Of a stretch of DNA of 52,548 nt, positions 1-52,548 are shown in pieces. This DNA is from a virus. The stretch lies in the IMG/VR virus record IMGVR_UViG_3300000557_000001; one strand, given 5' to 3'. The notes beneath the pieces were generated by a model that saw only the letters and a program-made list of their open reading frames with translations, did no database searches and had not been told where the DNA came from. Both the position numbers and the translations under genes were made by a program. Position 1 is the first letter of the stretch, and every line of letters starts with the position of its first letter.

Positions 1-101
1 AACCGCAATTATATCCTAATCGAGAAGTATAAAAAATATGTAGATATGATCAACGAGCGAATATCCGAGCACGAACAGCAGGCATCATTATTTGGAGGCG
101 A
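1..101. repeat. Terminal overlap, identical to 52448-52548 (circular closure or terminal redundancy)
   Basis: Both window ends read AACCGCAATTATATCC...TTTGGAGGCGA; the overlap lies inside one ORF and preserves its frame. Confidence 0.95.
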
Positions 102-111
102 TCATGTATGA
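1..111 (+). CDS. C-terminal end of the DNA methyltransferase that starts at 51800 (ORF crosses the circular junction)
   Basis: Frame continues from 52548 into nt 1 (..NRNYILIEKYKKYVDMINERISEHEQQASLFGGDHV*); stop TGA 109-111 overlaps the next ATG (ATGA). Confidence 0.85.
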   Translation, partial: NRNYILIEKYKKYVDMINERISEHEQQASLFGGDHV

Positions 112-629
112 GCATAATTTCGCAGGCAGTGGAACAGGCAGCAAAAAACGAAAGGTTGCACTTGGGTGCAGGAAACCGGATCAAAAAGGGCTGGGTGAAC
201 CACGACTTAAAAAAGCACAGGCCGGAGATCGACGTGGCTTGGGATTTGAACGTTTTGCCGTGGCCGTGGGAGGACGAAACTGCCGATCAGATTTGTTCAA
301 TGACTGTTTTTGAGCATCTGGACATTGATCTGGTTGCAGCGCTGGACGAATGCTGGCGTATTTTACGGCCGGGCGGCATTTTATACGTTAAGCTGCCGAA
401 CGCTTATGACGCGGAGCAGTGGGCAGACCCGACGCATCGGCGCGTGTTTACGTTGAACACTTTTAAGTTCTTTGATATAACGAAACAGCGCAAAACGACG
501 GACTTTTATACCGACCGGCTTTGGTATATATTGGACGAAGGCTTTACCGGCTGGACTAACAAGATAACCGGCATAAGGAGCAGCGTGTTTGCTGAACTGC
601 AGAAGCCAGAAAGGACTGATAGCGAATGA
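108..629 (+). CDS. Class I SAM-dependent methyltransferase (Methyltransf_11-like)
   Basis: 173 aa; LHLGAGNRIKKGWVNHD (GxG motif I-like) and ILRPGGILYVKLP; overlaps both neighbours by 4 nt. Confidence 0.7.
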   Translation: MSIISQAVEQAAKNERLHLGAGNRIKKGWVNHDLKKHRPEIDVAWDLNVLPWPWEDETADQICSMTVFEHLDIDLVAALDECWRILRPGGILYVKLPNAYDAEQWADPTHRRVFTLNTFKFFDITKQRKTTDFYTDRLWYILDEGFTGWTNKITGIRSSVFAELQKPERTDSE

Positions 630-2377
630 AGGTGCATATAATAAGGGATCGGCCGAACGGCACGATGATTTTAAGCCGCAAGGCGCAAGTTTTACGGGAT
701 GAACTGGGCTGGGGCTTATCTGCTACGGCGGATCCGGCAGCCGATCTGCAGTATGCGTTCTGTTACCTTGATTATAAGGATCGCAGCTTACCGTTCGCGG
801 CATATTTCACCCATCGGGAGGATATGCGCGCGGATAAAGTGTTGGAGTGGGAGCAGGCAGCGAAAAAAGCAGTGCTGCGCGTTACCAGTGCGCAGCAGTA
901 TTATAACGACCTGCAGGAATACGGGCCGACGGTTAAAATATTGCCGCCGTTGGATCGTGAAAAGTTTAGTATCCCGGCAGCAGGTGTTAAGCCGGCAGGC
1001 AAGCGGCCGGTCGTTGGCGTTTCCGGTTATGTTTACAGCGGTGGCCGGAAGGGTGAATGGTTGCTGGATGAAGTTATGGCAACGGACGCCGGCAAGGCTT
1101 TTGAATGGCGTGCTTGCGGCAAGGGTTGGCCGATACCGACAAAACAATATAAGTTTGATCAACTGCAAGACTTTTACCGTTACAATATAGACATTCTGCT
1201 TTGCACTGCTTTAATTGAAGGCGTGCCTTATCCGCCGCTGGAAGCGTTGGCTTGCGGCCGGCCGGTTGTGATCCCTTATGGCGTGGGTTTAATGGATGAA
1301 TTGCCGGAAATGCCGGGGATCGAACGTTACAAGGCCGGCGATGTTGAAGATATGCTGGCAGCTTTGGATCGTGCGGCAGCCGCGCAAGTTAAGCCGGAAG
1401 AATTAAGGGCTGCAACTGAACCATTCGATCAGCTTGCATGGGCTAAATCGCACGCTGACGCCTTTGCAGAAGTGGAGCAGGTGTTATTACATACGAAGCG
1501 GAGCGAAAAGCCGACACAGGCGGACAGGTTAGATGACAGCAGCATTAACAGGCGCAAAGACCGGGGAATTTACGTTGTGGCTTATGGCGCGGCCGCAAGG
1601 AACCGCGCGCGCGTGCTGGTTAACAGCGTGCGCCGTTATATGCCGGATATACCGGTGGCCGTTGCAAGCGAAGAACCGCTTACCGAACCAGAAGCGGATC
1701 ACTGGATACAGTATGACGGGGATCCGGGCGTGGGCGCGCGACTGGTTAAGCTTAACGCTTACAATTTAGCGCCGGCAAGCTGGCAGCAGGTGCTTTATTT
1801 AGACGCCGACACGGAGTTAACGGAAAGCGTTGATTACCTGTTTTATTGCTTGGATCAAGGCTGGGAGGCAGTGCTGGTTAAAGAGGTTAACAAAAATCAT
1901 CGGCATATTGCGCCGGGCAGCGATTATGAATATACGCTGGAAACTATAGGCAGGCCAGAAGGGAACGATGCTTGGTTGGCTCCTTGCGGTGGCGTTATAG
2001 CTTTTAAGCGTTGTGCTGCAGCAAAACGGTTCTTTGATACGTGGCTGCAGGAATACGGCGAAGGGCAAGCGCGCGATCAGCCGAGCTTATTGCGTGCGTG
2101 GTTTAAAACAAAGCTGCGCGCTTGGTTTGTAGGCAATGAGTGGAACAGCTTTACAAAGCACGCGCACGAAAACCGTTACCGGATCATTAAACATTACAGC
2201 GGCACGGCCAGATCAGGGCGCAGCGGTGAAACAGTTAAGGTGATAAATACCGGCAGCAAGGCCGTTGAACGTGCCGGGCATACGTTTTATCCGGGCGCGA
2301 CCGTGCTGGTTAATAAGCAGCGCAAAGGCTTTAATGAGATATTGGCTTGTAATTCGCTGCAGATTGTGAGAAAATAA
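626..2377 (+). CDS. Two-domain glycosyltransferase (N-terminal GT-B/GT4-like, C-terminal GT-A/GT8-like)
   Basis: 583 aa; EGVPYPPLEALACGRPVV (EX7E-type GT-B motif) and VLYLDADTEL (DxD GT-A motif). Confidence 0.8.
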   Translation: MKVHIIRDRPNGTMILSRKAQVLRDELGWGLSATADPAADLQYAFCYLDYKDRSLPFAAYFTHREDMRADKVLEWEQAAKKAVLRVTSAQQYYNDLQEYGPTVKILPPLDREKFSIPAAGVKPAGKRPVVGVSGYVYSGGRKGEWLLDEVMATDAGKAFEWRACGKGWPIPTKQYKFDQLQDFYRYNIDILLCTALIEGVPYPPLEALACGRPVVIPYGVGLMDELPEMPGIERYKAGDVEDMLAALDRAAAAQVKPEELRAATEPFDQLAWAKSHADAFAEVEQVLLHTKRSEKPTQADRLDDSSINRRKDRGIYVVAYGAAARNRARVLVNSVRRYMPDIPVAVASEEPLTEPEADHWIQYDGDPGVGARLVKLNAYNLAPASWQQVLYLDADTELTESVDYLFYCLDQGWEAVLVKEVNKNHRHIAPGSDYEYTLETIGRPEGNDAWLAPCGGVIAFKRCAAAKRFFDTWLQEYGEGQARDQPSLLRAWFKTKLRAWFVGNEWNSFTKHAHENRYRIIKHYSGTARSGRSGETVKVINTGSKAVERAGHTFYPGATVLVNKQRKGFNEILACNSLQIVRK

Positions 2378-2397
2378 GGTATAGGAGGGCAATTAAA

Positions 2398-2715
2398 ATG
2401 AAAAGCAGATACAAGCAGGAGCTTTTATCGCGCAAAAGGCAAGAAATGGTTGTGGTTAACTTAACGGAACGAACCTTTTACCGGGCAGGCTATGAATTTC
2501 CGCCGAAGCAGGAAACAACGGTGTCGGTGCTTCCCAGTGAGGTCGCGGAAATAAAGGCTTGCAGGGCGTTAAATATTTTCCACAAAGGTATCCCTTGCGA
2601 CTTTCCGGGTTGCGACTTTGTGGCTAAAAGTGATCGGGCGCTATATGCGCATAAACGGAAACATAAGAAAAAAGGTGGTGCAAAGTGGGATGACGCAGAA
2701 CCAGAAGAAGTATAG
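2398..2715 (+). CDS. Small basic protein with one classical C2H2 zinc finger
   Basis: 105 aa; SD GGAGGG upstream; IPCDFPGCDFVAKSDRALYAHKRKH = C-x4-C-x12-H-x3-H followed by a KKK tail. Confidence 0.6.
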   Translation: MKSRYKQELLSRKRQEMVVVNLTERTFYRAGYEFPPKQETTVSVLPSEVAEIKACRALNIFHKGIPCDFPGCDFVAKSDRALYAHKRKHKKKGGAKWDDAEPEEV

Positions 2716-3112
2716 CAGCGCGGATGAAGTTGTGCGCGCGACAGGCGTGCAGGCGGAAGATCTCGGCTTTGCGAACAATTATGAGCTTAAGCAGTGGCTT
2801 AACGATCGGCTGGTTGAAATAAAAAGCTTAATTGATGCCGACCGAAACCGGGATTATCACGCAGAAGTTAAGAGGGGCGAACGCGATCAGGTGCCGCCGG
2901 GCATAGAAGGGATCGCGTTGCGCATGGCTGGGAACTTGGTTGCGCATATAATAGCAAGGCAGCAAACGCCTGTTATACGTGTTGACGATTGGCAGGTTAG
3001 GGTCGCAGAGGATCAGGTGTTTACGAACGCGATTAAAAAGGATCTGCAGCGGTTCCCTGCCGGCCGGCGCTTCCGTTTTCACGTATTAGGCAGCAGCAGG
3101 GAGGATAATTAA
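2690..3112 (+). CDS. Head-tail adaptor/connector (gp6-like), assigned from position and weak sequence resemblance
   Basis: ATG 2690 behind SD AAAGGTGGTG (preferred over track start 2618); first gene of the connector set upstream of the HK97 gp10-like gene. Confidence 0.5.
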   Translation: MTQNQKKYSSADEVVRATGVQAEDLGFANNYELKQWLNDRLVEIKSLIDADRNRDYHAEVKRGERDQVPPGIEGIALRMAGNLVAHIIARQQTPVIRVDDWQVRVAEDQVFTNAIKKDLQRFPAGRRFRFHVLGSSREDN

Positions 3113-3113
3113 G

Positions 3114-3548
3114 TTGGGTGATTGGCAGGTAGATTTTAACGAAGAAGAAATGCGCGAATGGTTGGGTCTGGTTGAAAAAGCTTATGACCGCGCGCTGGAA
3201 TATATGGCTGCAGATGTTTGGGGCAATATTAAGCGTGAAACGCCGACCGATCATGGTAAACTTGCAGGCAGCTTCGCGCTGGAAAAAATATCGCGGCTAA
3301 AATGGCGGATTTATACGATGGTATATTATGCCATGTATGTTCACGAAGGAACCGGTATTTACGGGCCGGTCGGTCATCCAATAGTGCCGCGCAGAGCGCG
3401 CTTCTTAGTGTTTGAATGGCACGGCCAGACATGGTTCTTGCGCAGCGTCCGGGGCCAGAAGCCGAACCCGTTTGCTGACCGGGCAATGGATACCACGGCC
3501 GGCCGGGTGCAGGAATTTACAGAGCGCGCGGTGGCTGAAACTGCTTAA
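3114..3548 (+). CDS. HK97 gp10-family head-tail joining protein
   Basis: 144 aa, TTG start; HGKLAGSF..YYAMYVHEGTG..VPRRARFL..PNPFADRA pattern typical of the gp10 family. Confidence 0.7.
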   Translation: MGDWQVDFNEEEMREWLGLVEKAYDRALEYMAADVWGNIKRETPTDHGKLAGSFALEKISRLKWRIYTMVYYAMYVHEGTGIYGPVGHPIVPRRARFLVFEWHGQTWFLRSVRGQKPNPFADRAMDTTAGRVQEFTERAVAETA

Positions 3549-3559
3549 GGAGGGCTATT

Positions 3560-4033
3560 ATGCCGAAGTTAATACAGCTTGATGAAGCTTTGGAAGGTAT
3601 ATTGGACAGCGTTAACGCCACGCTGGAAGCGGCTGCAGGTGAAACAAAGCCGCTGGGCAAGGTTACTGCAATAATACGCGGCGATCGCAAACGCACGCAG
3701 CCGAAAACTCCGGCAATATGGACGCGGATCCTAAACGCGGAGCCGGATTATACAAGGCGCAGCATGGCGGAAGTATGGCGCGCGGACGTGATCCTGCTGG
3801 GCATAGTTAAAAACCAGAACCCGGATCAAGGATCCCGGGAAGCGACCCGGCTGGCAGCAAGGGCGCGCAGTGAAGTTTTAAAGGATCGGAGTTTGGGTTT
3901 ACGTGAATACGTGCAGGACGTGCGAAGTGGTATGTTTGAACCGAGTGGGCCGGAGCTACAAAGCAATGAAAACTTGTTTACGGCCACGGCGCTCCTGCAG
4001 GTTCACTTTACCATATTAGAAACAAATCCTTAA
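3560..4033 (+). CDS. Virion protein in the tail-terminator/tail-completion position; family not recognised
   Basis: 157 aa, SD AAGGAGGG; lies between the gp10-like gene and the tail tube gene. Confidence 0.45.
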   Translation: MPKLIQLDEALEGILDSVNATLEAAAGETKPLGKVTAIIRGDRKRTQPKTPAIWTRILNAEPDYTRRSMAEVWRADVILLGIVKNQNPDQGSREATRLAARARSEVLKDRSLGLREYVQDVRSGMFEPSGPELQSNENLFTATALLQVHFTILETNP

Positions 4034-4053
4034 GCAAAGGAGGGCGATAAAAA

Positions 4054-5052
4054 ATGACTGGTAAAATTAGGCGTTATTGCGGCATAGTTGAAGAATTGGA
4101 GTTTGGCGAACAGCCGGCGCCGGATCCGGTTGTCCATCTGGACATAACAAGCGCAGGGCTGGACGTGCCTTCGGATACGAATATTATCTATGAAGGCGGC
4201 GCGCGGCGATCTGCGCGGTTATACAGGCCGGGCTTTTATGCGCCGGAAGGCGATATTGTTTACGGCTTGGACATAAGGACGATCGGCTGGTTCTTGAAGT
4301 GGGCGCTGGGCAATTACAAGTTCAATGCTCAAGGCGGATCTAAAAACCTTCACGAATTTTACGGCACGCATAACGTCAGGCTTCCCAGCTTTTGCGCGCG
4401 CGTGGGCAAGGATCTGTTTGAACATATTTTCAGCGGTTGTATTATAAACAGCTTGGAAATTAACGTTGGCGACGCTTTGTGCGTTGCAACGGCGAACGTG
4501 ATTGCCAAAAAAGACGCAAAAGGCGCGATCGAAAGCGGCGAGTTAAGCTTCCCGGAAGAATATCCGTTGGCGTTCCATGAGGTTACTGCTTACCTTAACA
4601 GCGGCGAAATTAGCGCAAAGGTTAAGGAGTTAACTTTAACGATCAATAATAACGCAACGGCTGCAGACGGGCGGCATATAGGCTCGCGCCATCCCGGACA
4701 GGTGCCGGTGGGTGATCGGGAAACGACCTTAAGCTTGGAGCTATTCTATGAAGATACGGATATGCTTGAAAAGTTTTGGGGCGGTTCTACCGGGCCAGCA
4801 AAAAGCGGCTCCGATGAATTTAGCATGAAGCTTGAATTGGACGCCGGCGATTATGGCAAGCTGGAAATTGACCTGCCGAAGCTGGTTAACGTTACAGCAG
4901 AACAGCAGCCGAGCAATCGGGATGAAATCGTGCAAAGTGTTGAAGCGCGTGCGTTTATTGATACCGTGGAGCTTGACGGCGGCGAAGAAGTGGAAACGGA
5001 AATACTTTGTTCGCTTGAAAACGAGCAGGCCGAAATGGAACCTGCAAGTTAA
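4054..5052 (+). CDS. Major tail (tube) protein candidate
   Basis: 332 aa, SD AAAGGAGGG; sits immediately upstream of the chaperone pair and tape measure; acidic C-terminal extension. Confidence 0.6.
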   Translation: MTGKIRRYCGIVEELEFGEQPAPDPVVHLDITSAGLDVPSDTNIIYEGGARRSARLYRPGFYAPEGDIVYGLDIRTIGWFLKWALGNYKFNAQGGSKNLHEFYGTHNVRLPSFCARVGKDLFEHIFSGCIINSLEINVGDALCVATANVIAKKDAKGAIESGELSFPEEYPLAFHEVTAYLNSGEISAKVKELTLTINNNATAADGRHIGSRHPGQVPVGDRETTLSLELFYEDTDMLEKFWGGSTGPAKSGSDEFSMKLELDAGDYGKLEIDLPKLVNVTAEQQPSNRDEIVQSVEARAFIDTVELDGGEEVETEILCSLENEQAEMEPAS

Positions 5053-5080
5053 TATATAATGCGGAAAGGAGCTTGTTAAG

Positions 5081-5596
5081 ATGGGTGAACAAGTAAACAG
5101 GTTAAACAAAGCGGCGTTATTACAGGGCCGGGATCAGGTGTTTTATGAATACTTTGAAGAACTGGACGGCGAAATAGCACTTGCGCCGCTTACCGACGGC
5201 CAATATTCACAGGCGGAAGCGGTCAGGGCAACGGGCGCTTCCATGAGTGGCCGGCCGGTTATGGATAAGGACGGCAACGTGGATCGGGCCGCGACAAGTG
5301 GGCAGCTTGAATTTAAAATTGATATGCAAGCTGCAGCAAACGCGGACTTTGAAGCTGATTGTTTGGCCGTGGCTTACAGCTTAAGCAATGGCAGCGGCGA
5401 GCAATGGACTGATCGGGAGGTTAAGGCGTTGCAGCCGCCGGGCATTGTCCACAAGATAGCTGCTAAAGTTTACGAAATAAGCGGTGCAAACCAGCAGCAG
5501 ATTGAGCAGGTGCGTTCCTTTCGCGGAAAGCGCGGAGGGGCAGAACATGATAAACCTTCATCTGGCAAGCGTTCCGCTGGTAAAAAGTCAAGCTGA
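5081..5596 (+). CDS. Tail assembly chaperone (gpG position)
   Basis: 171 aa, acidic; directly upstream of the tape measure gene; overlaps the next ORF. Confidence 0.6.
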   Translation: MGEQVNRLNKAALLQGRDQVFYEYFEELDGEIALAPLTDGQYSQAEAVRATGASMSGRPVMDKDGNVDRAATSGQLEFKIDMQAAANADFEADCLAVAYSLSNGSGEQWTDREVKALQPPGIVHKIAAKVYEISGANQQQIEQVRSFRGKRGGAEHDKPSSGKRSAGKKSS

Positions 5597-5774
5597 TATG
5601 ACGCCGCTGCAGCGCGCGTTCTTGGAAGCCGGCATTTCCTACGCTTACACAAAGCAACGGGAAGCCGTGTTTGGCAAGGGCGGCGCTGCAGGCGGCATGA
5701 GCAGCGGCGGATCGCATAAGGATAAACGGGAAGAAATGAAAAAGCGCACAGCGCAACGGAAAAGAGGTGGTTAA
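5547..5774 (+). CDS. Second tail-assembly protein (gpT position): independently initiated, or the distal part of a +1/-2 frameshift fusion with 5081-5596
   Basis: Internal SD GGAGGGG 7 nt before ATG 5547; its frame is +1 relative to 5081-5596; ends 2 nt before the tape measure start. Confidence 0.45.
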   Translation: MINLHLASVPLVKSQADMTPLQRAFLEAGISYAYTKQREAVFGKGGAAGGMSSGGSHKDKREEMKKRTAQRKRGG

Positions 5775-5776
5775 CG

Positions 5777-7891
5777 TTGGCAACTATGGAAATTATACTG
5801 CGCGCGGTGGATCAAGCTTCCGATGTTGTGGAAGGGATCGGGCAAACAACCGAAAAGGCGGCCGGCTGGATTGATCAAAACTGGACAAAGATCGCAGCCG
5901 GGGCCGCTGCAGCCGGCGGCGCGATGGAAATGGCCGCGCGCAAACAGGCGCCGTTAACTGAACAAACGCAGCGCCTTTCTAATGCTTTGGACATGGCAGA
6001 AGATGAAGTGCGCGATCTTGCGCTGGGCATGTCTGACGTTACCTTCCCGATCGATGAAGTTTTGGGCTTAATGGAAAAAGGCCGGCAGCAGGGCATTGAA
6101 AGCGCGGAAGCGTTGGAAGAATATGCGTTGTTTTGGGATCAGGTTGGCGATGCGACCGGCTTAAGTGCTGAACGGTTGGCCGAAAGTTCGTCTGCACTGC
6201 GCGCGGTTGGCATTGCCGCCGGTGAAGAAGCGCAAGCGCTGGACGCCTTTGGTTATATAACGCAGGAAACAAGCGGCAGCGTGGATGATTTTATGCACTT
6301 TATTGATCGCACGGGGCCAGAACTGCGCGAAATGGGTGCAGATGTGGACGATGCTGCAGCCGTGCTGGGTGCTTTAGAGCATGAACTTGGTATGAGTGGC
6401 CGCACGGCGCGAACAGAGTTTAGGCAGGCGATCAATGAAGCGAATGGCGATATGGGCAAGGCGCTTGAAACGCTGGGCTTAAGCGAAGAACAGTTTAAGG
6501 AATACCGGGGCGCCGTTGCAGATAGCAGCGATGTTATAGAAAAAAATGCGGAAGCGCACGAAGAAAGTTATACCACGATGCAACGTTTGCAGGCGCGCGC
6601 GGAGGATCTTATGTATCAATACGGCGATTTGATCGGCGTTGTGGGTGATTTTGCGCCGCTTATGATGGGATTAGGGCCAATATTAAAAGGCGTTACCACG
6701 GCCAAAAAGGCGCTGGGTGCAGTGTCTATGAAGGCAATGGTGCCGGCTATTGTAGGCGCAACGAAGGCAGCTTGGGGCTTTACGGCTGCACTGCTGGCGA
6801 ACCCGATAACGTGGATCGTGCTGCTGATAGTTGGCTTAATAGCGGCGATCGTGGCTTTATGGAAAAACTGGGATACAGTTAGCGAAAACTTGGTTAAGGC
6901 TTGGGATTGGATCCGGGAACGTGCGACCGCTATATGGGAAGGAATTAAAAACTTTTTTAAACAGGTCTGGCAGGTGATAAGCGGCATATTTGAAGCCGCG
7001 CTGCAATTTATAATCGACCTGTTTATGAAATATCATCCGCTGGGGCTTATTATAAGCAACTGGGAAGAAATATTAGACTTTTTCCGGGATATATGGAGCC
7101 GGATCATTGGAACCACGGATACCAGCTTGGATGATATTGTAAACTTTTTTGCTGAATTGCCGGGCCGGATTTGGGAATGGCTGGTCAACTTGGTTGCGCG
7201 GATCTTTAACTGGGATAACGATATGCGACAAGCGGCCATTGATGCCGGCCATAACTTTATTGAAAACTATATTAATTTTATACGGCAGCTTCCGGGCCGC
7301 GTTTGGACTTGGCTGGTTAACGTTATTAACCGGTTTATTAACTGGCGGAACACAGTGGTCAGCAGGGCGGCCGAAGCTGGGCGCAGTTTATTAAGAGGAT
7401 TTATGGACGTTGTGCGCAACTTACCGGGGCAGCTTTGGGATACGCTGCAACGAGCCGTCCGCAACTTAATGAACATAGGCGGTGCGCTTTGGAACGCTGC
7501 AAGGAACGCAGGGCAGCGGATCTGGAACGGGATCAGCAGCGCGCTGGGCATAAGCTCGCCTTCCCACGTGGAACGGGCGATCGATGCAATGGCGGATCGG
7601 GCTGCTGAATTGCCGGGTGAAATGCAACGGCATTTCGGCCAGATTGAAGGGCTGCAGCCGGAGCTTGACGCTAATGTTAACACGGCAACTTCCGGCCTGC
7701 GCGAAGGCGGCGTTACGCGCAGCGAGTTAACTATAAAGCACGACCTTGAAAACGTGCCGGATCACATAGACGAAAACAAGCTTGCGAATATGTTAGCGCA
7801 GACCTTAAAGCGGCCAGAAATGCGCCGTGAGCTTGATAAGGCCGGGCATAAAACAAAGCAGCGCTTTAAGGCTCAAGGGAGGGAAATCTAA
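5777..7891 (+). CDS. Tail tape measure protein
   Basis: 704 aa; central hydrophobic helices; long run of W/F-periodic helical repeats (IWEWLVNLVARIFNW.., VWTWLVNVINRFINW..); position before Dit. Confidence 0.85.
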   Translation: MATMEIILRAVDQASDVVEGIGQTTEKAAGWIDQNWTKIAAGAAAAGGAMEMAARKQAPLTEQTQRLSNALDMAEDEVRDLALGMSDVTFPIDEVLGLMEKGRQQGIESAEALEEYALFWDQVGDATGLSAERLAESSSALRAVGIAAGEEAQALDAFGYITQETSGSVDDFMHFIDRTGPELREMGADVDDAAAVLGALEHELGMSGRTARTEFRQAINEANGDMGKALETLGLSEEQFKEYRGAVADSSDVIEKNAEAHEESYTTMQRLQARAEDLMYQYGDLIGVVGDFAPLMMGLGPILKGVTTAKKALGAVSMKAMVPAIVGATKAAWGFTAALLANPITWIVLLIVGLIAAIVALWKNWDTVSENLVKAWDWIRERATAIWEGIKNFFKQVWQVISGIFEAALQFIIDLFMKYHPLGLIISNWEEILDFFRDIWSRIIGTTDTSLDDIVNFFAELPGRIWEWLVNLVARIFNWDNDMRQAAIDAGHNFIENYINFIRQLPGRVWTWLVNVINRFINWRNTVVSRAAEAGRSLLRGFMDVVRNLPGQLWDTLQRAVRNLMNIGGALWNAARNAGQRIWNGISSALGISSPSHVERAIDAMADRAAELPGEMQRHFGQIEGLQPELDANVNTATSGLREGGVTRSELTIKHDLENVPDHIDENKLANMLAQTLKRPEMRRELDKAGHKTKQRFKAQGREI

Positions 7892-8652
7892 TGAAGTTTG
7901 ATGTTTTAAAGTTTAACGGCAAACAAAGCGATGACCCGGAACTTGGGATCGAATTATGGCAGGCGTGGCGCCGGCCGATCGCAGCCGGAACACGTGATCG
8001 GCTGGTTGTTATAGACGGGCGAAACGGTGTTATTGATCACGGCGGCGATCTGCAGGAGTTGGAGATCGAATGCGAGTTTGTTGTGGCTGCTGATAGCATG
8101 GAAGATCTGCGCAGCAAGGCGCGCGCGATCGCAGCTTGGTTGCATACGTGGGAGCCTGCTGAACTGCTTTTTGGCGATGAGCAAGACAAATATTATAACG
8201 CGCGCAGGGTCGGCAGCATTGATCAGGAGCAGATCATTAACACGGGTGAAGGCAGCGTTACCTTTATGATACCGGAAGGCTGCGCGCTTGCTAAAGACCT
8301 GAAAGAAAAGGCTTACAGTTGGCCGCAAACAAACGAAGGAACGCTGCAGTGTCCGGCCGTTGTTACTTTTGAAGCGCCGTACGAAATGGACAAGGTTGTT
8401 TTGCGGCTGGCAGGCACGGACAAGGCGATTATATTAGACAAGACCGTGGCCGCCGGCGCGGAGGTTGTTATTGATACCGGGCTTTGGACTGTTACCGTGG
8501 CCGGCGAAGATGAACGGAAGAATATAGCTTTTCATTCTTATTGGTTTTGGCTGCCGGTGGGTGATTTTACGTTGGAACTGGCAGATCAGGAAGAAGGCGG
8601 CGAAATTAGTCCGGTTTATTTTAACCTGCAATACAGGGAGCGTTATATATAA
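7891..8652 (+). CDS. Distal tail protein (Dit, siphovirus tail component)
   Basis: 253 aa; start overlaps the tape measure stop (TAATG); sits between tape measure and Tal. Confidence 0.7.
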   Translation: MKFDVLKFNGKQSDDPELGIELWQAWRRPIAAGTRDRLVVIDGRNGVIDHGGDLQELEIECEFVVAADSMEDLRSKARAIAAWLHTWEPAELLFGDEQDKYYNARRVGSIDQEQIINTGEGSVTFMIPEGCALAKDLKEKAYSWPQTNEGTLQCPAVVTFEAPYEMDKVVLRLAGTDKAIILDKTVAAGAEVVIDTGLWTVTVAGEDERKNIAFHSYWFWLPVGDFTLELADQEEGGEISPVYFNLQYRERYI

Positions 8653-11600: not shown

Positions 11601-11657
11601 GGCGCTATAGCGGACGCCGGGGATGGCACGATTACAGATGCCGGGAACCGCGAATAA
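8652..11657 (+). CDS. Tail tip / receptor-binding protein (Tal-like N-terminus, central LamG-like lectin domain, C-terminal right-handed beta-helix)
   Basis: 1001 aa; LamG-like FNGSSTFVDVG..DGEWHTIRAY; PbH1-type repeats NNSCNENYQGIRIN / GNTCKKNEANGIVIT / DNLCVENDMNGISM / GNECNDNDWDGIHIW. Confidence 0.75.
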   Translation: MNSIIILNSDLQRIADLDWAKALNPVLEQDYRDGEQVFSFDYPVIDEEAFKLGENSDQDAAVLVIADPDTGDLLPFTITEIEHYKDNNRDHIAVSAEGLYYELADGPVRDYDLISATAATAIDHALEGTRWQLGEVAAGFNTANIYRQEANPLEMLRRIAAEFDGILRFRMEYSGAQVTAFKVDLQQPDDQFKGLRFEFGRNLKGVEIVTDYSQLKTALYGFAQGDELDLDAELEEPKKMTFADVQWLAKVLHFNGSSTFVDVGSREDFDHTDIELTFRTDSSSGTQVLAAGLYENICLFLVDGNIWLTGWQVLNGPTVTDGEWHTIRAYKHAVLNLWFIQVDGEYVEREMSSDQDSVLSHWFGFGARIYPAPGDTEDHFEGEIRNVKARENETVINHWPCGDGEGTDIEDIVGTDDGTATDPGWQDEDRYNKPLGQKWVGCDEAREKYGLYDPDTGQRLHRYGQHESEATTKGALLEATAEVLDRRKKPRVTITADPADLAKAKVTDTVTGQPVQLDHESFKLGDLCHVIARHKDIIAALEVRIVRLRRNLNNPVEAEVVMGDPVPLDSDYIDRLDRKMAEQARQQRRLDRGRGQTTITIASEDTSRQPWYADIIVPAGADNFQVYLEKAMNMLRDKDSGGRVVILEGKYIYNSEMLVGFWREGAPPGIIPNVTVAGQGAGTELHLKQGLDYGVRGLVCYGAGGVNVQDLAIYGHKETHDEEEAGHQNGIHFIGGSGAEFRNLTIKGFASSGILTWQVKRSKIIDCVISDCDLQGINCTVTDDDQIVDEFGTETSDIIISRNSCFDNESNGIRASTATGFLIANNSCNENYQGIRINDLDDGGITGNTCKKNEANGIVITDGCSNNEISDNLCVENDMNGISMGDKSVQNNINANICENNGWSGINLWADNDTDKPNRCNIIGNECNDNDWDGIHIWSDENNIQANKCTGNDYGVWIGYDEDAGIQAADNLVTNNDLIGNTDGAIADAGDGTITDAGNRE

Positions 11658-11669
11658 GGAGGGCTTTTT

Positions 11670-20614: not shown

Positions 20615-20935
20615 ATGGCTGAATTTTTTGATTTTGTTTTAAGTTACTGGGGATTGATTGGTTTAGCGTTGATCTTTGTGCTAAAGGCGATCTTTGACTG
20701 GGAAGCTACAAAAAAGCGGATTCGGGATTTGATCTTTTTAGCTGAAGAATTAGCGCAAAAGAAGATCCTTGAAACTGGGAAGGAAAAGTTTGAATGGGTG
20801 AAAAATAACGGATACGCTTACCTTCCGAAGTGGCTTAAACTGGTTATTAGCGAAGAACTGTTTGAAAAAATAGTGCAAAACATTTTCGATCGGATCAAAG
20901 AGTGGGCAAAAGGCGAAGATTTGATCGAAGAATAA
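20615..20935 (+). CDS. Holin candidate (LL-H-family-like: one N-terminal TM helix plus helical tail)
   Basis: 106 aa; SYWGLIGLALIFVLKAIF TM; layout resembles LL-H holins as I remember them; last gene before the strong terminator. Confidence 0.45.
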   Translation: MAEFFDFVLSYWGLIGLALIFVLKAIFDWEATKKRIRDLIFLAEELAQKKILETGKEKFEWVKNNGYAYLPKWLKLVISEELFEKIVQNIFDRIKEWAKGEDLIEE

Positions 20936-37194: not shown

Positions 37195-37728
37195 ATGGAC
37201 TTACCGGACAAAACGTATGAAATAATATACGCAGATCCGCCGTGGCAATATAAAGATCGCGCGCTGGCAGGCGAACGCGGCGCCGGGTGCAAGTATAAAA
37301 TTATGGATATTAAGGATATACAGGCGCTTCCGGTGCCGCGGATCGCGGCAGAAAACAGCGTGCTTTTTCTTTGGGCCACGTTTCCGCTTATTGATGAAGC
37401 CTTGACCACGCTGGCAGGCTGGGGCTTTATGTATAAGACCGCGGCGTTTGTTTGGGTTAAGCTTAACAAGCGGCAGCCGACGCCGTTTTGGGGAATGGGC
37501 AACTGGACACGGGCGAACGCAGAGGTTTGCCTGCTGGGCATTAAAGGCAATCCAAAAAGAGTTAATGCCGGTGTGCATCAGGTTATTATGACGCCGCGCG
37601 AAGAACACAGTAAAAAACCGGACGAAGCAAGGCGGCGGATCGTGCAGCTTTTAGGCGATCGGCCGCGGATCGAATTGTTTGCACGGCAAACGGCCGCCGG
37701 CTGGGATAGCTGGGGCGACGAATTATAA
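37195..37728 (+). CDS. MT-A70-family N6-adenine DNA methyltransferase
   Basis: 177 aa; IIYADPPWQY, FLWATFP, EEHSKKP, ELFARQTAAGWDSWGDE. Confidence 0.9.
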   Translation: MDLPDKTYEIIYADPPWQYKDRALAGERGAGCKYKIMDIKDIQALPVPRIAAENSVLFLWATFPLIDEALTTLAGWGFMYKTAAFVWVKLNKRQPTPFWGMGNWTRANAEVCLLGIKGNPKRVNAGVHQVIMTPREEHSKKPDEARRRIVQLLGDRPRIELFARQTAAGWDSWGDEL

Positions 37729-38844: not shown

Positions 38845-41289
38845 TTGGAATTAAAACGGATGAAGCTTGAAGAAATAACGCCTGCGGAGTATAATCCGCG
38901 CGTGGATTTGCAGCCGGGCGACCCTGAATATGAACGGCTGCGCAAAAGTTTGCAGGAGTTTGGGCTGGTTGATCCGCTGGTATTTAACAAGCGCACGGGG
39001 CGCCTTGTAGGCGGACATCAGCGCGTTAAGGTGCTGCAGGATCTTGGTTACACAGAAGCGGACGTCAGTTTGGTTGACCTGCCGGCGGAAAAGGAGCAGG
39101 CCTTGAACCTTGCGCTTAACAAGATCGAAGGGCGCTGGGATGAAGATGCGCTGCGCGATGTTTTGGATAATATTAATAAGTGGATCGATGAAGAAATGCC
39201 GGACTTTGATATTGAAGCAACTGGTTTTTCGGAGCAGGAAATAGACGATCTTATAGGCGATACGGAAGGGCTTATGGACGGCGCTGATTACATGGACGGC
39301 GACGGGCAAAGTTTGGCAGAGCGCTTTGTCGTGCCGCCATTTACGGTATTAGACGCGCGGCAGGGTTACTGGCGGCAGCGAAAAGAGGAATGGTATGCAA
39401 AGGGCATTATAACGGAGGCCGGCAGGGAGGATCTTGACGATACCACGGCTTCCGGTTGGGTGAGCCGCGGCAGGGATCAGGGCGGCAGCGCGTTTGATCC
39501 GGTGCTGGCAGAAATAGCGTTTAAATGGTTCTGCCCGGAAGGCGGCGCAGTGCTTGATCCGTTTGCCGGCGAAAGCACGAAGGGCATCGTGGCCGGGCTG
39601 CTGGGCTTTAGTTATACAGGCGTTGAAGTTAGGAAGGATCAGGTGGACGCCAATTACAGGCAGCTTGAAGCAATGCCGGAAAAACCGGGCGGCGAAGTGC
39701 GTTGGATCACTGGCGACGCTGCAAAGCTGGAAAGCGTTTTGCCGCAAGGGCAGGAGTATGATTTTATTTTTACCAGTCCGCCTTATTATGACTTGGAGGT
39801 TTACAGCAGTGAAGAAGCCGACGGCAGCACGTTTGGCAGTTATGCTGAATTTATGGCGTGGTATGAGCATATCTTTAAGCAGGCCGTTGCGCAGTTAAAG
39901 GAAAACGCCTTTGTTGTGGTAAAAGTGGGCGAAATACGCGATAAAAAGACCGGCGCTTACCGGAACTTCGTGGGTGATAACATAAGCTGCTTTAAAGGGC
40001 TGGGCTTGCATTACTACAACGAAGCGATCTTGGTTACTCCGGTCGGCAGCTTACCGCTGCGCGCCGGGCGGCAGTTTGAAGCAAGCCGCAAGCTGGGCAA
40101 GGCGCATCAGAATATCCTTGTATTTTACAAGGGCGACCTTAATAAAATTAAGGATCTGCAGTTTGTGGAAGTTGAACTGGACGAAGATGGCAGCGTTACG
40201 CTGGAAAGCGAAGCGGAAACTGCTGCAGGCGATGGCGCGCAGGTGCAGGCTGCAGACGGCGGCGGCGGCAACGTAAAGATGAAGCTGGGCAAAGTGGCCG
40301 ACAATGCGCTGCCGCGCGAAGCTATGGAGTTATATAACGCAACGGGATCGGTGCCTTTTGCAAAAAAGTTTAACGCCTGCCCGGAACTGGGCGAATATTT
40401 AAAGCTGGTTTACGGTGCAGGCGATCAAGAGCTTACACTGCAAGAAGTTGATTGCCCGAAGCCGATACCGTTACAGGATAACGGAACCTGCTGGGTGAGT
40501 TTTACCGGTGGGAAGGACAGCGTGGCTGCAGCGATCAGGGCGCAGGAGCGCGGTTACAAGGTGATCCCTTATTACTTGCAGGGCATTAACCGGGGCGTCG
40601 CCGATGAACTGCACTATGCGCAGAAGATCTGCGACCGCATGGGTTGGCCGCTGGTTGTAGATAAGATCAGTATTAGCGGCAAAAAAAGCGGCGTTGTAGA
40701 AATGCCGACCAAAAATCAAGTCATTGTTTTGTGTATGCTGGGGCGCATGGCAGAACAGGGCGGCGCAGCTTGGACGGCCGGTTATCACGAAGATACGGCG
40801 CAGGCGGAACGCGGCTGGGGCTTTGACTTTAGCGACGGCGACAAAGCGGTTGCGCTGTTTAACGCTTACCTTGAAAAGCGCGTGCCGGGTGTTAAGTTCT
40901 TAATGCTGCTGCAAGATACGCTTGAATGCTGGGCTTTGTGCGCGGACTATGGACTAATCAACTATATTAAAGGCTGCGCTTGTCAGCCACGGTTTAAGGA
41001 AATGCGCCGGAAGAAGAATGTTGAAAAGTTCGGCGCTGCTAATATACTGCACGGCCGCTGCGGAAGCTGTATAAAGTGCGCGTGGGAACAGGTTGCACTT
41101 CAACGGCTGGGCATAGTGCCGGAAAGCCGCGCGGTTAGACAGCACGGCTTGAAGTTCTTGGAGCAGTTTAAAAGTGTTTGGAATACCGGCGGCCGGGATA
41201 TGGAAAATTATTTAGTGCCGCAAAGCAGGGCCGAACAGGAAAAACAGGCAAGGCGTGGCCGGTGGCCGAAGCAGCCGATGCCTGATTAA
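38845..41289 (+). CDS. Triple fusion: ParB-like N-terminal domain, SPPY-type DNA methyltransferase, PP-loop ATP pyrophosphatase (PAPS-reductase/QueC-like)
   Basis: 814 aa, TTG 6 nt after GGAGGTGG; EYNPR..GGHQR; DPFAGESTKG and FTSPPYYD; SFTGGKDS; C-terminal CGSCIKC. Confidence 0.85.
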   Translation: MELKRMKLEEITPAEYNPRVDLQPGDPEYERLRKSLQEFGLVDPLVFNKRTGRLVGGHQRVKVLQDLGYTEADVSLVDLPAEKEQALNLALNKIEGRWDEDALRDVLDNINKWIDEEMPDFDIEATGFSEQEIDDLIGDTEGLMDGADYMDGDGQSLAERFVVPPFTVLDARQGYWRQRKEEWYAKGIITEAGREDLDDTTASGWVSRGRDQGGSAFDPVLAEIAFKWFCPEGGAVLDPFAGESTKGIVAGLLGFSYTGVEVRKDQVDANYRQLEAMPEKPGGEVRWITGDAAKLESVLPQGQEYDFIFTSPPYYDLEVYSSEEADGSTFGSYAEFMAWYEHIFKQAVAQLKENAFVVVKVGEIRDKKTGAYRNFVGDNISCFKGLGLHYYNEAILVTPVGSLPLRAGRQFEASRKLGKAHQNILVFYKGDLNKIKDLQFVEVELDEDGSVTLESEAETAAGDGAQVQAADGGGGNVKMKLGKVADNALPREAMELYNATGSVPFAKKFNACPELGEYLKLVYGAGDQELTLQEVDCPKPIPLQDNGTCWVSFTGGKDSVAAAIRAQERGYKVIPYYLQGINRGVADELHYAQKICDRMGWPLVVDKISISGKKSGVVEMPTKNQVIVLCMLGRMAEQGGAAWTAGYHEDTAQAERGWGFDFSDGDKAVALFNAYLEKRVPGVKFLMLLQDTLECWALCADYGLINYIKGCACQPRFKEMRRKKNVEKFGAANILHGRCGSCIKCAWEQVALQRLGIVPESRAVRQHGLKFLEQFKSVWNTGGRDMENYLVPQSRAEQEKQARRGRWPKQPMPD

Positions 41290-41897: not shown

Positions 41898-42626
41898 ATG
41901 GGAACCTGCTGGCAGTATATACAACGGCAAAAGTTCGCTGCCGAAGGGCTGCCGGCAGGGCTGCAGCCGGATCAGTTAAAGCCACGCCTTGCGCACGTTG
42001 CACGGATCAGCAAGGATCAGGCGCGCGCGGTTATCCTGAAATATGAATGGCTGGGAACAATGGCGCAAACGGGCCTTCATTATGGCATATTTTACGGCGA
42101 TCACTTGGCAGGCGTTACTTGCGTCAACGTGGGCGGCGCCGGGGCGGCCGGTGTTAACAGTCATAAGGAGTTTAACCTGCAGCGCGATCAGGTGGCTTAT
42201 TTAGCGCGCGGCGCTTGCGTTCACTGGGCGCCGACCGGAACTAACAGCCGCCTTGTTAGCATAACGGCGCGCATGGTTGCAAAGGACAGCGCTGCAAAGG
42301 TGCTGCTTGCATACGCTGACCCGGCTGCCGGGGAGATCGGAACAATATATCAGGCTTGCAACTGGTATTATATAGGCAGAACGTGGCCGGGCCGGCGCTG
42401 GGTGTCGCCTGATGGGCAAAAGGATCGCGATTGGAAATATCCTTATGATCTTAAAAAACAGCGCGGAAAAACTCGTAAACACTGGGCGGACTGGTTAAAG
42501 GCGCAGGGCTGGACTGTTAAGGTGCTGCAGCCGAAATATAAATACGTGGCAATCTTGGACAAGGGCGACCCGGATCTGTTAAAATTGATTAAGGGAAAAG
42601 CGCAGGATTATCCTAAAAAAGTTTGA
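41898..42626 (+). CDS. GNAT-fold, Mom/DUF4338-like candidate DNA base-modification enzyme
   Basis: 242 aa; KYEWLGTMAQTGLHYGIF.., LLAYADPAAGEIGTIYQACNWYYIGRT; family assignment from memory of the motif only. Confidence 0.4.
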   Translation: MGTCWQYIQRQKFAAEGLPAGLQPDQLKPRLAHVARISKDQARAVILKYEWLGTMAQTGLHYGIFYGDHLAGVTCVNVGGAGAAGVNSHKEFNLQRDQVAYLARGACVHWAPTGTNSRLVSITARMVAKDSAAKVLLAYADPAAGEIGTIYQACNWYYIGRTWPGRRWVSPDGQKDRDWKYPYDLKKQRGKTRKHWADWLKAQGWTVKVLQPKYKYVAILDKGDPDLLKLIKGKAQDYPKKV

Positions 42627-48543: not shown

Positions 48544-48599
48544 TCAGCAACGGAACTGCAGTTTTTTTATAAGCTTGGAAAAAGGAGGTGTTCTATTTA

Positions 48600-50249
48600 A
48601 TGCCATTAGACAAACATTCCATTGAAGAAAAACTACGCAAGATCAGCAATGCGCTTGAAATGAACTCTGGTTTAGCAGACCCTCTGCCGGTTGCAACTTA
48701 TGGCGATAATGTTATTGTTAAGGACTACGGCAACGATGGGGAGCTTTACCAGCTTCAATATTCGGAAGTGAACGGCGAAATAGTGTTTGGGCAGCCGGCG
48801 CCGGTGGACGTTGCATACGTGCAGAAGCAGCTTTTAGAGCAGAACCCGAACGCTGCAGCTAAAGACGTTCAAAGCTTAATTGATACTTGGAGCGAGTGGG
48901 CCGGCGGCTTTAGTGAATGCGTGGCAGCACTGGCGGACAAGCCGGGGATCGATAATCCCGAAGCTTTGTGCGCTTGGTTGCATTATCAGGCGGAAGGCAA
49001 GTGGCCGGCGGAAGCTGCTGCAAACGCGGCAAAGGACAAGGACGCGGAGCTTACCGGGCCAATTGTATATAAGAATGATGCAAAGCGGATCGCATACGCG
49101 GCCGTCTTAGTGCCGGGCGAACCGGATCATGATGGCGAAACGGTTAGCGCGGAGCAGGTTGAAAAGGCTGCGCATGAATGGATGGAGCTTTATAGGAACG
49201 TTGACCTGCAGCACAGCTTGAACAACGTGGGCGTTCCGGTTGAAAGTTATCTGCTGCCGCAAGCAATGACCGTTAAATCGCTTGACGGGCAGGATCTTGA
49301 ATTGCCTGCCGGAGCTTGGATCTTGGGCAGCAAGGCCACGGATGACGAAACTTGGGGCCGCGTAACAAGCGGCGAACTTACTGGATATTCTGTTATGGGA
49401 ATTAAGCGCACGGCTGGCAAGTCTATTGATAAGGACGCGGCATTTAAACGAACCCTGCTCGGTGATTTGGGTGAAGATTGGGTGGCCGCGTTTGTTAGTT
49501 TTGTCGATCAGCCGGCCGTTCCGAAGGCAAAGTTTTTCGCGCTTAAAAGTAAAGCGCCGGAGCCGGGCAACGGTGGACAGAAAAAAGGAATACTGCAAAG
49601 GTTTGTCGAAAGCTTAAAAGGCGGCGATCAGGCTGGCAAAGCCGGCCGGCAGTTTAGCGATGATAATTATACAAAGCTGCAGCAACTTAAAAATCAGGTT
49701 GCGGACGCCTTGCAAGAACTTAACGGGTTGATTAAAGTGGCCGAACAGGAAAGGGCTGGCGGCAATGCGTATGACGCGAACTTTAATTCCGGGAAAGGAG
49801 GCGATGCTGACATGACTAAAGAAGAACTGTTAAAGGCAATTAAAGAGGATCCTGAAACAAAGGAAGCTTTAAAGGCTGCGCTTGCAGAGGAAGATCAGGG
49901 CGCCGGGGATCAGGGCGATCAAAACGATCAGAATGATCAAGGCAGCAATGATCAAAACGCTGCAGGCAAAGATCAGGATCAGGGCGATGCTGGCGATCAG
50001 GATCAGGGCGATCAGGATCAAGGCAGCGGCGGTGATACCGAAACGGTGTCTAAAGAAGATTATGATCAGCTTAAGGCTGATTATGACGCTTTAGCGGAAA
50101 AGGTTGAAAAGGCGCTGGGAACCGGCAGCCGTTCTATTAAAGGGCAAGACGGCAGCGACGACGATACCAGCACAAACGCGAAGAAGCGCGCTGAACTTTG
50201 GGGCCGGGATGGTTTTGGCCGGCGCAGGCGCGATCTTGAAGATAAATAA
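48600..50249 (+). CDS. XkdF-like prohead protease/scaffold fusion with a D/Q/G-rich low-complexity linker
   Basis: ATG 48600 after AAAGGAGGTG; RIAYAAVLVPGEPDHDGETVSAEQVEKAAHEWM; DQGDQNDQNDQGSNDQ..; coiled-coil C-terminus. Confidence 0.7.
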   Translation: MPLDKHSIEEKLRKISNALEMNSGLADPLPVATYGDNVIVKDYGNDGELYQLQYSEVNGEIVFGQPAPVDVAYVQKQLLEQNPNAAAKDVQSLIDTWSEWAGGFSECVAALADKPGIDNPEALCAWLHYQAEGKWPAEAAANAAKDKDAELTGPIVYKNDAKRIAYAAVLVPGEPDHDGETVSAEQVEKAAHEWMELYRNVDLQHSLNNVGVPVESYLLPQAMTVKSLDGQDLELPAGAWILGSKATDDETWGRVTSGELTGYSVMGIKRTAGKSIDKDAAFKRTLLGDLGEDWVAAFVSFVDQPAVPKAKFFALKSKAPEPGNGGQKKGILQRFVESLKGGDQAGKAGRQFSDDNYTKLQQLKNQVADALQELNGLIKVAEQERAGGNAYDANFNSGKGGDADMTKEELLKAIKEDPETKEALKAALAEEDQGAGDQGDQNDQNDQGSNDQNAAGKDQDQGDAGDQDQGDQDQGSGGDTETVSKEDYDQLKADYDALAEKVEKALGTGSRSIKGQDGSDDDTSTNAKKRAELWGRDGFGRRRRDLEDK

Positions 50250-51299: not shown

Positions 51300-51318
51300 T
51301 CCATAAAGGAGGGCAACG

Positions 51319-51343
51319 GGGCGGCAGTTAATAGCTGCCGCCC
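51319..51343 (+). terminator. GC hairpin after the capsid gene (attenuator candidate), same palindrome family as 21575-21595
   Basis: GGGCGGCAG-ttaatag-CTGCCGCCC; no U-run. Confidence 0.45.
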
Positions 51344-51353
51344 TTAGCTTAAA

Positions 51354-51803
51354 ATGACAAAAAAACAGTTAAGCAGGGCGGCTTTACCGCTTAAGGACTA
51401 TGAACAAGAGGATTTTGCCGGGCTGCCGCTGGTTAAGGGCATATCTGGCGCGAAAAAAGTTGTTTGTTTTGACCCCGAAGCTGAATTTAATACCAGTTTG
51501 ATTAGAATAGGGCTGCAGCAGTTGGATCGTTGGGAAGTTTTGGTTCCCTTTAGGCGATACAACGAGCTTGCAGTTGATTTTTTTGGGGAAAAAGATCCGG
51601 CCATGAAGCAGGCGTTGGGTGATTTGCGGATACCAGTTTATGATCCGCGGCTGGTTATGCTGCGCGTTAACAATACGACGCGCGCGTTGTGGAAACGTTA
51701 TAATGAGTTAAGCGCAGAATATGACTGGCGGATCGCGTTTCAATTGGCGTTGTGGGAAACAAAGCCGCATTATTATCCGCTTCCGGCAGGTGTTTGGATA
51801 TGA
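51354..51803 (+). CDS. Hypothetical protein
   Basis: 149 aa; no SD adjacent to its ATG (nearest SD is 51305-51313, upstream of the hairpin). Confidence 0.55.
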   Translation: MTKKQLSRAALPLKDYEQEDFAGLPLVKGISGAKKVVCFDPEAEFNTSLIRIGLQQLDRWEVLVPFRRYNELAVDFFGEKDPAMKQALGDLRIPVYDPRLVMLRVNNTTRALWKRYNELSAEYDWRIAFQLALWETKPHYYPLPAGVWI

Positions 51804-52548
51804 GCATAAATCAAGTTATACACGGTGATTGCTTAGAAGTCATGCCATCACTGCCCGATAAAAGTATAGACATGATTTTATGCGATTTACCTTACGGCAC
51901 AACTGCTTGTAAATGGGATAGCATAATACCGTTTGAACCGTTATGGGCAGAATATAAACGGTTGATAAAAGATAATGGTGCGATAGTGTTGACGGCAGAC
52001 CAACCATTTACAAGTGTATTGATAACAAGTAATTTATCTGATTATAAATACCGTTGGGTTTGGGATAAAATGCGGGGCGTTGGACATTTAAACGCAAGGC
52101 ATAGACCAATGATGAGCGCAGAAGACATTTGCGTTTTTTGTGACGGTGTGACAAAATACAACCCACAAATGCGGGAAAGGGAAAACCCCCGTAAAAGTAA
52201 AAACTATGGAACACAAGAATGTTATGGTAAGACAAGAGATATCTTTGACGGTGAGGTTTTAATGGAAAAGCACCCTATCAATATTTTAAGGTTTAGTAAA
52301 TCAGAACAATCAGATATGTTATTACACCCTACACAAAAACCCGTTGCCCTGTTTGAATATCTAATTAAAACCTACACCAATGAAGGTGAAACGGTATTAG
52401 ATAATTGCGCAGGTTCAGGAACAACAGCAATAGCCTGCATAAACACTAACCGCAATTATATCCTAATCGAGAAGTATAAAAAATATGTAGATATGATCAA
52501 CGAGCGAATATCCGAGCACGAACAGCAGGCATCATTATTTGGAGGCGA
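51800..52548 (+). CDS. DNA methyltransferase, beta-class N6-adenine/N4-cytosine type; the ORF runs off the window end and finishes at nt 111 (252 aa in total)
   Basis: ATG 51800 (ATGA overlap); DLPYG (DPPY-type motif IV) early, HPTQKP, DNCAGSGTT (motif I) late; absent from the ORF track because there is no stop before the window end; much lower G+C than neighbours. Confidence 0.9.
   Translation, partial: MSINQVIHGDCLEVMPSLPDKSIDMILCDLPYGTTACKWDSIIPFEPLWAEYKRLIKDNGAIVLTADQPFTSVLITSNLSDYKYRWVWDKMRGVGHLNARHRPMMSAEDICVFCDGVTKYNPQMRERENPRKSKNYGTQECYGKTRDIFDGEVLMEKHPINILRFSKSEQSDMLLHPTQKPVALFEYLIKTYTNEGETVLDNCAGSGTTAIACINTNRNYILIEKYKKYVDMINERISEHEQQASLFGG
52448..52548. repeat. Second copy of the 101-nt terminal overlap
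   Basis: Identical string to nt 1-101. Confidence 0.95.

Follow-up and report, generated by a model that had tools for sequence, protein, structure and literature searches.

GATC is exempt and favoured in a phage lineage purged of GA/TC steps and many short words

The genomes of a phage lineage follow a rule that acts on DNA: GA/TC steps and many short words have been removed throughout, and the palindrome GATC is exempt from this removal and favoured. The genome in which this was worked out, IMG/VR record IMGVR_UViG_3300000557_000001, is referred to here as the window and was analysed over its whole length of 52,548 nt. GATC may be a methylation-shielded 'safe word' in a word-purged lineage, spared and favoured at once, an explanation that we tentatively prefer and rate at somewhat less than an even chance. 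The wider purge, which takes in GANTC, GTAC, CTAG, CCWGG and the GA/TC step, is context that had been missed in the initial annotation of this sequence.

A full count gives 512 GATC, and since nt 1-101 are identical to nt 52448-52548, the copies at 48 and at 52495 are one site, so that 511 are unique; other features inside this 101-nt overlap also enter raw window statistics twice. Base composition predicts 196 sites (a 2.6x excess) and a maximal-order Markov model 257 (2.0x), while 300 synonymous-codon shuffles, which preserve each protein and the codon usage of each gene, contain 294±10.7, placing the observed number at z=+20.3 and 1.74x, the top of all 256 tetramers. When the shuffles also bar 116 purged words, 1.43x is left (357±9, z about 17). 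As the codon shuffles fail to reproduce the GATC density, the enrichment proposed in the initial annotation stands, but at 1.4-2.0x under proper nulls rather than the 2.5-4x first estimated, although the local counts behind that estimate were exact (12 in 1-1200, 8 in 17101-17820, 10 in 31201-31800 and 12 in 49893-50020). GGATCC (38 vs 19.8 expected) and CGATCG (37 vs 16.6), which had been called conspicuous, are indeed enriched, but only about as much as GATC itself, and AGATCT is depleted (5 vs 10.6). GATC-bearing hexamers are uneven between strands, with CGATCC at 0 against 59 for its complement GGATCG, and CTGATC at 1 against 81 for GATCAG. Nearly every gene carries 1.3-3.8x as many GATC as its own codon shuffle, and the early, middle and late regions are enriched alike.

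Non-coding DNA behaves in the same way: it holds 22 GATC against a Markov expectation of 10, 22 of its 39 NATC are GATC, and TC occurs 77 times where 210 are expected. The effect therefore acts on DNA and is not a translational codon-pair effect, and the codon-pair bias once offered as the alternative has to be given up, codon usage being likewise unable to explain the excess. Within genes, the effect is written in synonymous choices. Ile is encoded by ATC in 65% of cases after G vs 3-11% otherwise; Asp is encoded by GAT in 80% of cases before C, including 75 of 77 Asp-Gln and 27 of 28 Asp-His pairs. All NNY boxes but that of Asp shun a T ending ahead of a C-starting codon; TTT makes up 82-93% of Phe codons when the next codon starts with A, G or T, but 8% when it starts with CG. 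At codon junctions, G|ATC is found 194 times vs 80 in shuffles, while T|C other than GAT|C is reduced to 231 vs 562 and G|A other than G|ATC to 656 vs 1101. The rare xGA codons (GGA/CGA) and TCN codons are recruited as adjoining pairs, xGA|TCx being seen 43 times vs 7. These choices (Ile ATC after G, Asp GAT before C, GGA/CGA with TCN) pile up at GATC because it is the sole tolerated GA/TC context. At the protein level, the dipeptides Asp-Gln (77 vs 47) and Gly-Ser (110 vs 62) exceed expectation.

Long-term selection has removed more than 100 short words from this genome, many of them classical restriction targets (GANTC, GTAC, CTAG, CCWGG, GGWCC, CAGCTG, GAATTC). No fewer than 658 of the 4096 hexamers are absent vs 105±9 in codon shuffles, as are 41 pentamers vs 0.3, and 118 non-redundant words stand at <=15% of expectation. 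CTAG is missing altogether (34 expected from codon shuffles), and so is CCWGG (96 expected; CCTGG and CCAGG 0 vs 49 and 47), while GTAC and GANTC survive once each. GCGGG occurs 3 times vs 107 expected (3+0 vs 128 for GCGGG/CCCGC), and GGWCC, CTSAG, GAGAC/GTCTC, CAGCTG, TGGCCA, GAATTC, CATATG, CCATGG, GATATC and GCATGC are at or near zero. Many purged words are strand-asymmetric: CACCG is seen 0 times vs 78 for CGGTG, GCACC 1 vs 86 for GGTGC, CCAAG 0 vs 68 for CTTGG, and GCCCA 0 vs 114 for TGGGC. Because all genes lie on one strand, this asymmetry could reflect selection at the RNA or single-strand level; alternatively, it could reflect enzymes that need paired inverted sites. On the + strand, TGGGTG occurs 59 times (20 expected) vs 7 on the other strand, and GCTGGG 74 vs 2, and both words, G-rich and strongly biased to one strand, may act as Chi-like signals for recombination. 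Altogether, 89 purged words survive in the genome. Three of them, CGCCC, GCCCT and CTTAGC, overlap at 51339-51348, where a C>T variant at 51343, carried by all four other runs compared, eliminates CGCCC and GCCCT; the window allele is thus the odd one.

The purge reaches down to the dinucleotide. TC is the rarest of all (rho 0.49), and outside GATC its rho is about 0.27; 44% of all TC sit in GATC, and GA-N1-TC is found once. Depletion of the GA/TC step amounts to ~2-4 fold at each free position; it affects both strands, coding as well as non-coding sequence and two phage lineages, and it spares GATC alone. The one-mismatch neighbours of GATC are all depleted alike (AATC/GATT 64/204, CATC/GATG 41/225, TATC/GATA 94/250).

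How far hard avoidance of words can account for GATC was measured with a constrained null, a Markov chain of synonymous swaps in which the count of the 116 purged words, none of them containing GATC, never rises. The chain settles at 357±9 GATC from a real or a shuffled start, so that hard avoidance, in lifting the expectation from 294 to 357, explains about 29% of the excess. By frame, it covers most of GAT|C (251 observed vs 228 constrained) but fails for G|ATC (194 vs 98) and for xGA|TCx (43 vs 7), as well as for the general avoidance of T|C and G|A; barring the purged words does not account for the GA/TC depletion. After constraint, the unpurged palindromes GCGC, TTAA and TGCA are about 1.3x enriched too.

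The same signature is found in the one known sister lineage, represented by an IMG/VR genome (L001) and a Kulunda-type soda-lake sediment contig (L091), whose terminase (TerL) is 73%, capsid 78% and proteins overall about 68% identical to those of the window at the amino-acid level. There, GATC stands at 11-12 per kb, GANTC at 0-1, and GTAC, CTAG and CCWGG at 0; GA/TC outside GATC is 0.62-0.64, and the GC step has a rho of 1.54-1.57. Most purged words are shared, the strand-asymmetric ones being kept as such, while CGAGG and CTGTG are purged in the window alone. All other family members are without GA/TC depletion (0.87-1.13). Some of these relatives are neutral for GATC (4-7 per kb, Markov observed/expected ratio (O/E) 0.7-1.4), and the window, at 9.7/kb, has about 1.4-1.6x the density of neutral relatives at 6-7/kb. 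In others (L100, L104-L106 and L108-L110), GATC is missing altogether from 7-20 kb of sequence, and several of these come from samples that also hold the GATC-rich lineage. With a span from zero to enriched, GATC is contested among these phages, which belong to one family and share a habitat yet treat the same tetramer in opposite ways. L098, L100, L104, L105, L106, L108, L109 and L110, all of the same capsid family (47-61% identity), have 0-1 GATC in 7-20 kb. In another relative, L092 (positions 1-15405), whose capsid is 70% identical, CCWGG reaches 156 copies in 15.4 kb, several-fold over expectation, where the window has 0; the CTAG count of L092 is 0 and its GTAC count 4.

The shielding explanation runs as follows. 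GATC adenines would be methylated during infection and hence exempt from the purge, the enzyme being either a Dam-type orphan of the host or one of two conserved phage candidates, an MT-A70 protein or a ParB-methylase fusion. A methylated GATC, and any site that overlaps it, would go unseen by the nucleases responsible for the purge; those nucleases would also be what pushes sister phages of this sediment to zero GATC. Dam-type methylation blocks TaqI (TCGA) and ClaI (ATCGAT) at sites that overlap GATC, and BglII (AGATCT) is not blocked by it. In the window, the survivors of TCGA and ATCGAT lie almost exclusively in overlap with GATC (for TCGA, 38 of 53 vs 17 of 80 in shuffles; for ATCGAT, 11 of 12), which fits a methylation-linked reading, and the depletion of AGATCT lends it indirect support. 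Several points weigh against this explanation. Nucleases behind a general dinucleotide purge would have to form an implausibly large set of enzymes. Shielding alone predicts neutrality and not excess, and the residual 1.4x excess rests on funnelling by soft constraints, which cannot be modelled without circularity since GATC's one-mismatch neighbours would be among the constraints. A search for target specificity through solved structures, NCBIfam and annotated phages returned nothing informative for any of the methylases. Finally, MT-A70 homologues in 59 other phage contigs show no association with GATC (Markov O/E 0 to 1.55, median 0.63), and a role for the MT-A70 family in the enrichment is not supported.

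The initial annotation had tied the enrichment to three phage methylase domains. That link is not supported: besides the behaviour of the MT-A70 homologues, the enzyme of a low-GC cassette at the end of the window is absent from the equally enriched sister and from later populations. In L091, L092 and L094 the two genes that flank the cassette are immediate neighbours, and no homologue of the cassette turns up anywhere; contigs from two later soda-lake studies (2019-2022) coincide with the window up to nt 51797 and carry other sequence beyond that point. The cassette also holds 16 of the 89 surviving purged words within 550 nt. Its low GC, few GATC, purged-word survivors and absence from the sister and from later populations mark it as a recent, variable insertion; it is therefore not the cause of the enrichment, and the lack of the signature in it shows that the signature is acquired slowly. 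The single GATC between 51800 and 52548 had been counted correctly, and the codon content of the cassette itself predicts 2.1, so that the cassette is GATC-poor yet is not avoiding GATC. The MT-A70, ParB-methylase and Mom-family genes are all conserved in the sister lineage, and the last of them adjoins the other two. Judged from its family membership, the Mom-family protein points to adenine modification beyond methylation.

Among the rival explanations, a genome signature of the host is the most substantial, and we consider it possible though distinctly unlikely. Here, a mutation or repair bias of the host (GATC-rich, GA/TC-poor, GC-step-rich) would be copied by the phage through host replication, with no phage-specific selection. 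It is in keeping with the finding of a primase/helicase and an SNF2 helicase but no phage DNA polymerase, with the uniformity of the pattern over all gene classes and in non-coding DNA, with the match in detail, strand-asymmetric purged words included, between two lineages at about 68% amino-acid identity, and with the recently inserted gene that lacks the signature, as slow amelioration predicts. However, mutation bias cannot yield the near-total absence of words (GANTC 1, CCWGG 0, CTAG 0), and AATC/GATT, one transition away from GATC, show no stronger depletion than the other neighbours, so a bias of the short-patch-repair type is not indicated. A Halomonas metagenome-assembled genome (MAG; G001) was considered as the host because a 6.7-kb phage contig, L009 (PWIZ01000010.1), is filed in it; it was rejected, with a GC of 0.65-0.70 and a normal GA/TC step. 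The GC of L009 itself is 0.50 vs 0.65-0.70 in the other contigs of the bin, and L009 is thus probably mis-binned.

Less probable still is that the GA/TC purge is the work of a host factor with a recognition motif perhaps no longer than TC/GA, which would fail to see methylated GATC, the phage writing TC masked as GATC. Candidates would include a CRISPR system with a TCN-type protospacer-adjacent motif (PAM) whose recognition an m6A:T pair blocks, a TC-specific DNA deaminase, or another base-modifying defence.

That GATC is directly and positively selected as a functional site, whether for strand discrimination in mismatch repair, for control of packaging or replication (P1 pac, oriC) or for binding of a phage protein, appears quite improbable. 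Such selection would agree with the top rank of GATC among tetramers under every null, with the excess of Asp-Gln and Gly-Ser dipeptides and with the rare codons drawn in to make GATC. Nevertheless, the sites are dispersed, and their pair distances show 3-nt codon periodicity alone and no helical spacing; the only dense cluster is a low-complexity coding repeat, Asp-Gln, at 49893-50020. Only 5 of 59 genes have a GATC <=20 nt upstream of the start, and no extended consensus was seen around the sites, whose flanks are mildly biased. Regulatory clusters of the Dam-controlled kind (oriC, P1 pac, mom promoter) were looked for and rejected, there being neither such clusters nor helical spacing. Recruitment of GATC-compatible dipeptides at the protein level was likewise rejected, as capsid and terminase are no richer in them than those of relatives without the signature. 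Compared with the sister phage, 53 of 119 aligned GATC sites coincide, a sharing that is due to conserved dipeptide class (Asp-Gln, Asp-His and Arg-Ile always give GATC), shared ancestry and a 55% background codon identity, not to site-specific conservation. Moreover, the density is merely about 1.4-1.6x that of GATC-neutral relatives, and none of 37 population single-nucleotide polymorphisms creates or destroys a GATC, in a sample small enough that power is low. The enrichment is accordingly a compositional signature at the level of the lineage, not a set of discrete functional sites. The earlier suggestion that GATC is maintained as a modification or recognition site is thus plausible in its first half, which the methylation-linked reading fits, and not supported in its second, given the dispersal and codon periodicity of the sites.

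That the excess is a pure by-product, the remainder once many other words are barred, is the least probable reading and is largely refuted by the constrained shuffle and the junction counts, for although constraint covers most of GAT|C and leaves unpurged palindromes mildly enriched, it leaves 155 sites unexplained and does not reproduce G|ATC or xGA|TCx, and GATC runs counter to the general avoidance of T|C and G|A, of which it is no consequence.

The carrier of this signature is a phage with all genes on the + strand, preceded by strong ribosome-binding sites (AGGAGG). Its unique genome, 52,447 bp long, is complete and circularly closed. From its predicted proteins, the gene set is of siphovirus type with a Gram-positive-like bacterium as the type of host: the structural genes encode a terminase, portal, XkdF-type protease/scaffold, major capsid protein, tail tube, tape measure, Dit and Tal-like protein, and further genes encode an Amidase_2+SPOR lysin, a DUF927/Cch primase-helicase and the SNF2 helicase. 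DNA polymerase, integrase, C5-methylase and Vsr were not found among the scanned open reading frames (ORFs) of at least ~80 aa, some smaller ones being unscanned. GenBank phages include no near-identical or close record; the best terminase matches, ~48% identical, are in Bacillus, Faecalibacterium, Listeria and Staphylococcus phages. Near-identical DNA comes from salt- and soda-lake metagenomes of three studies from 2012 to 2022, and IMG/VR searches with lysin, tail fibre and primase turned up no unrelated phages sharing the host. Coordinates of the main features are given in Table 1.

Table 1. Features of the window, with positions counted from its first nucleotide
Feature	Position	Strand	Remarks
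GATC enrichment	1..52548	.	512 sites (511 unique), ~1 per 103 nt
Exact repeat of nt 52448-52548	1..101	.	Assembly overlap of a circular or permuted genome
Class-I SAM methyltransferase	108-629		Probably not a DNA enzyme
Sole GTAC of the genome	8379..8382	.	82 expected from codon shuffles
Sole GANTC of the genome (GATTC)	20719..20723	.	About 82-196 expected
Largest GATC-poor island	20923-22760	+	2 sites in 1.8 kb; T-poor leader and amidoligase gene 21602-22513
MT-A70 family N6-adenine methylase	37195..37728	+	62% identity in sister lineage; candidate GATC methylase
814-aa protein, noc/ParB-like N-terminus and N6_N4 methylase domain	38845..41289	+	70% identity in sister lineage; candidate GATC methylase
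Mom-family protein	41898..42626	+	Adenine-modifying enzyme family (PF25680, E 7e-24); 69% identity in sister lineage
12 GATC in 128 nt	49893..50020	+	Asp-Gln repeat encoded as GAT-CAR; lies in the acidic tail at the C-terminus of the XkdF-type protease/scaffold protein, 48588-50249
Beta-class N6/N4 DNA methylase, low-GC cassette	51798..52548 (ORF 51752..52548, then 102..113)	+	GC 0.32-0.43

In the island at 20.9-22.8 kb, GATC-compatible dipeptides are seldom encoded as GATC (1 of 4 and 1 of 8), and the stretch from 20.9 to 23 kb holds 10 surviving purged words. The genome also encodes a nucleoside 2-deoxyribosyltransferase-like protein (18986-19540), a guanylate/dNMP-kinase-like protein (34260-34997), the amidoligase (21602-22513), a GGACT/AIG2-like cyclotransferase (25456-25953) and a glycosyltransferase-like protein (626-2377). 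Going by their predicted families, this set is reminiscent of pathways of base hypermodification.

One lineage thus shows both extremes, a word set among the most heavily purged measured here and a palindrome that is kept and favoured. If GATC is methylated, this family would illustrate in nature how one host weapon can be answered in two opposite ways, by avoiding or by masking, and the purged words would then serve as a fingerprint of the host's defences. Behind the GA/TC purge there could be a defence that recognises very short motifs, and a new mechanism could hide in the removal of this step, which the 116 purged words do not cover.

Several known systems invite comparison. Avoidance of short palindromes, that is, of restriction sites, in phage genomes was reportedly described by Sharp in 1986. 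The window resembles it in the near-total loss, relative to codon-aware expectation, of 4-6 bp Type II target words, a loss that is lineage-specific and absent from a recently acquired gene. Unlike the usual case, however, the purge extends to the 118 words, 658 hexamers and 41 pentamers counted above, is strand-asymmetric and depletes a whole dinucleotide step, and the GATC feature is an enrichment.

Over-representation of a methylase target has been described in cells: GATC is over-represented in haloarchaeal genomes with a cognate orphan Dam-type methylase (Fullmer et al. 2019, PMC6471742), as is CCGG in Helicobacter (Rusinov et al. 2015, PMC4687349). Viruses of saline habitats often have zero GATC (PMC7230728). 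The window shares with the haloarchaeal case a methylase-target palindrome above expectation, depleted CTAG and a saline habitat. Those are, however, cellular genomes with an identified cognate methylase, whereas the window is a bacterial-type phage (strong Shine-Dalgarno sequences, peptidoglycan amidase), and its excess is coupled to a GA/TC purge that is not described there.

A second enriched palindrome is HIP1 (GCGATCGC), described as hyper-abundant in cyanobacteria (PMC5861425). As with HIP1, the enrichment in the window concerns a palindrome that includes GATC, extends over the whole genome and falls at synonymous positions, but its unit is the bare tetramer, whose flanks show a weak preference; the HIP1 8-mer occurs 7 times among the 512 GATC and was rejected as the source of the excess. 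A link between HIP1 and a methylase is said to have been proposed by Elhai in 2015.

Very-short-patch repair, a bias for CCWGG reportedly attributed to E. coli Dcm and Vsr by Bhagwat and McClelland and by Merkl and colleagues in 1992, is similar in that a methylated palindrome is enriched by a genome-wide process, and the relative L092 is rich in CCWGG. It differs in that the scanned phage ORFs yielded neither a C5-methylase nor Vsr, and enrichment of this type was rejected for GATC, the deamination neighbours GATT/AATC not being specially depleted. Taken together, the enrichment of GATC belongs with the known motif-bias phenomena, and it is set inside an unusually strong and partly unexplained purge of words.

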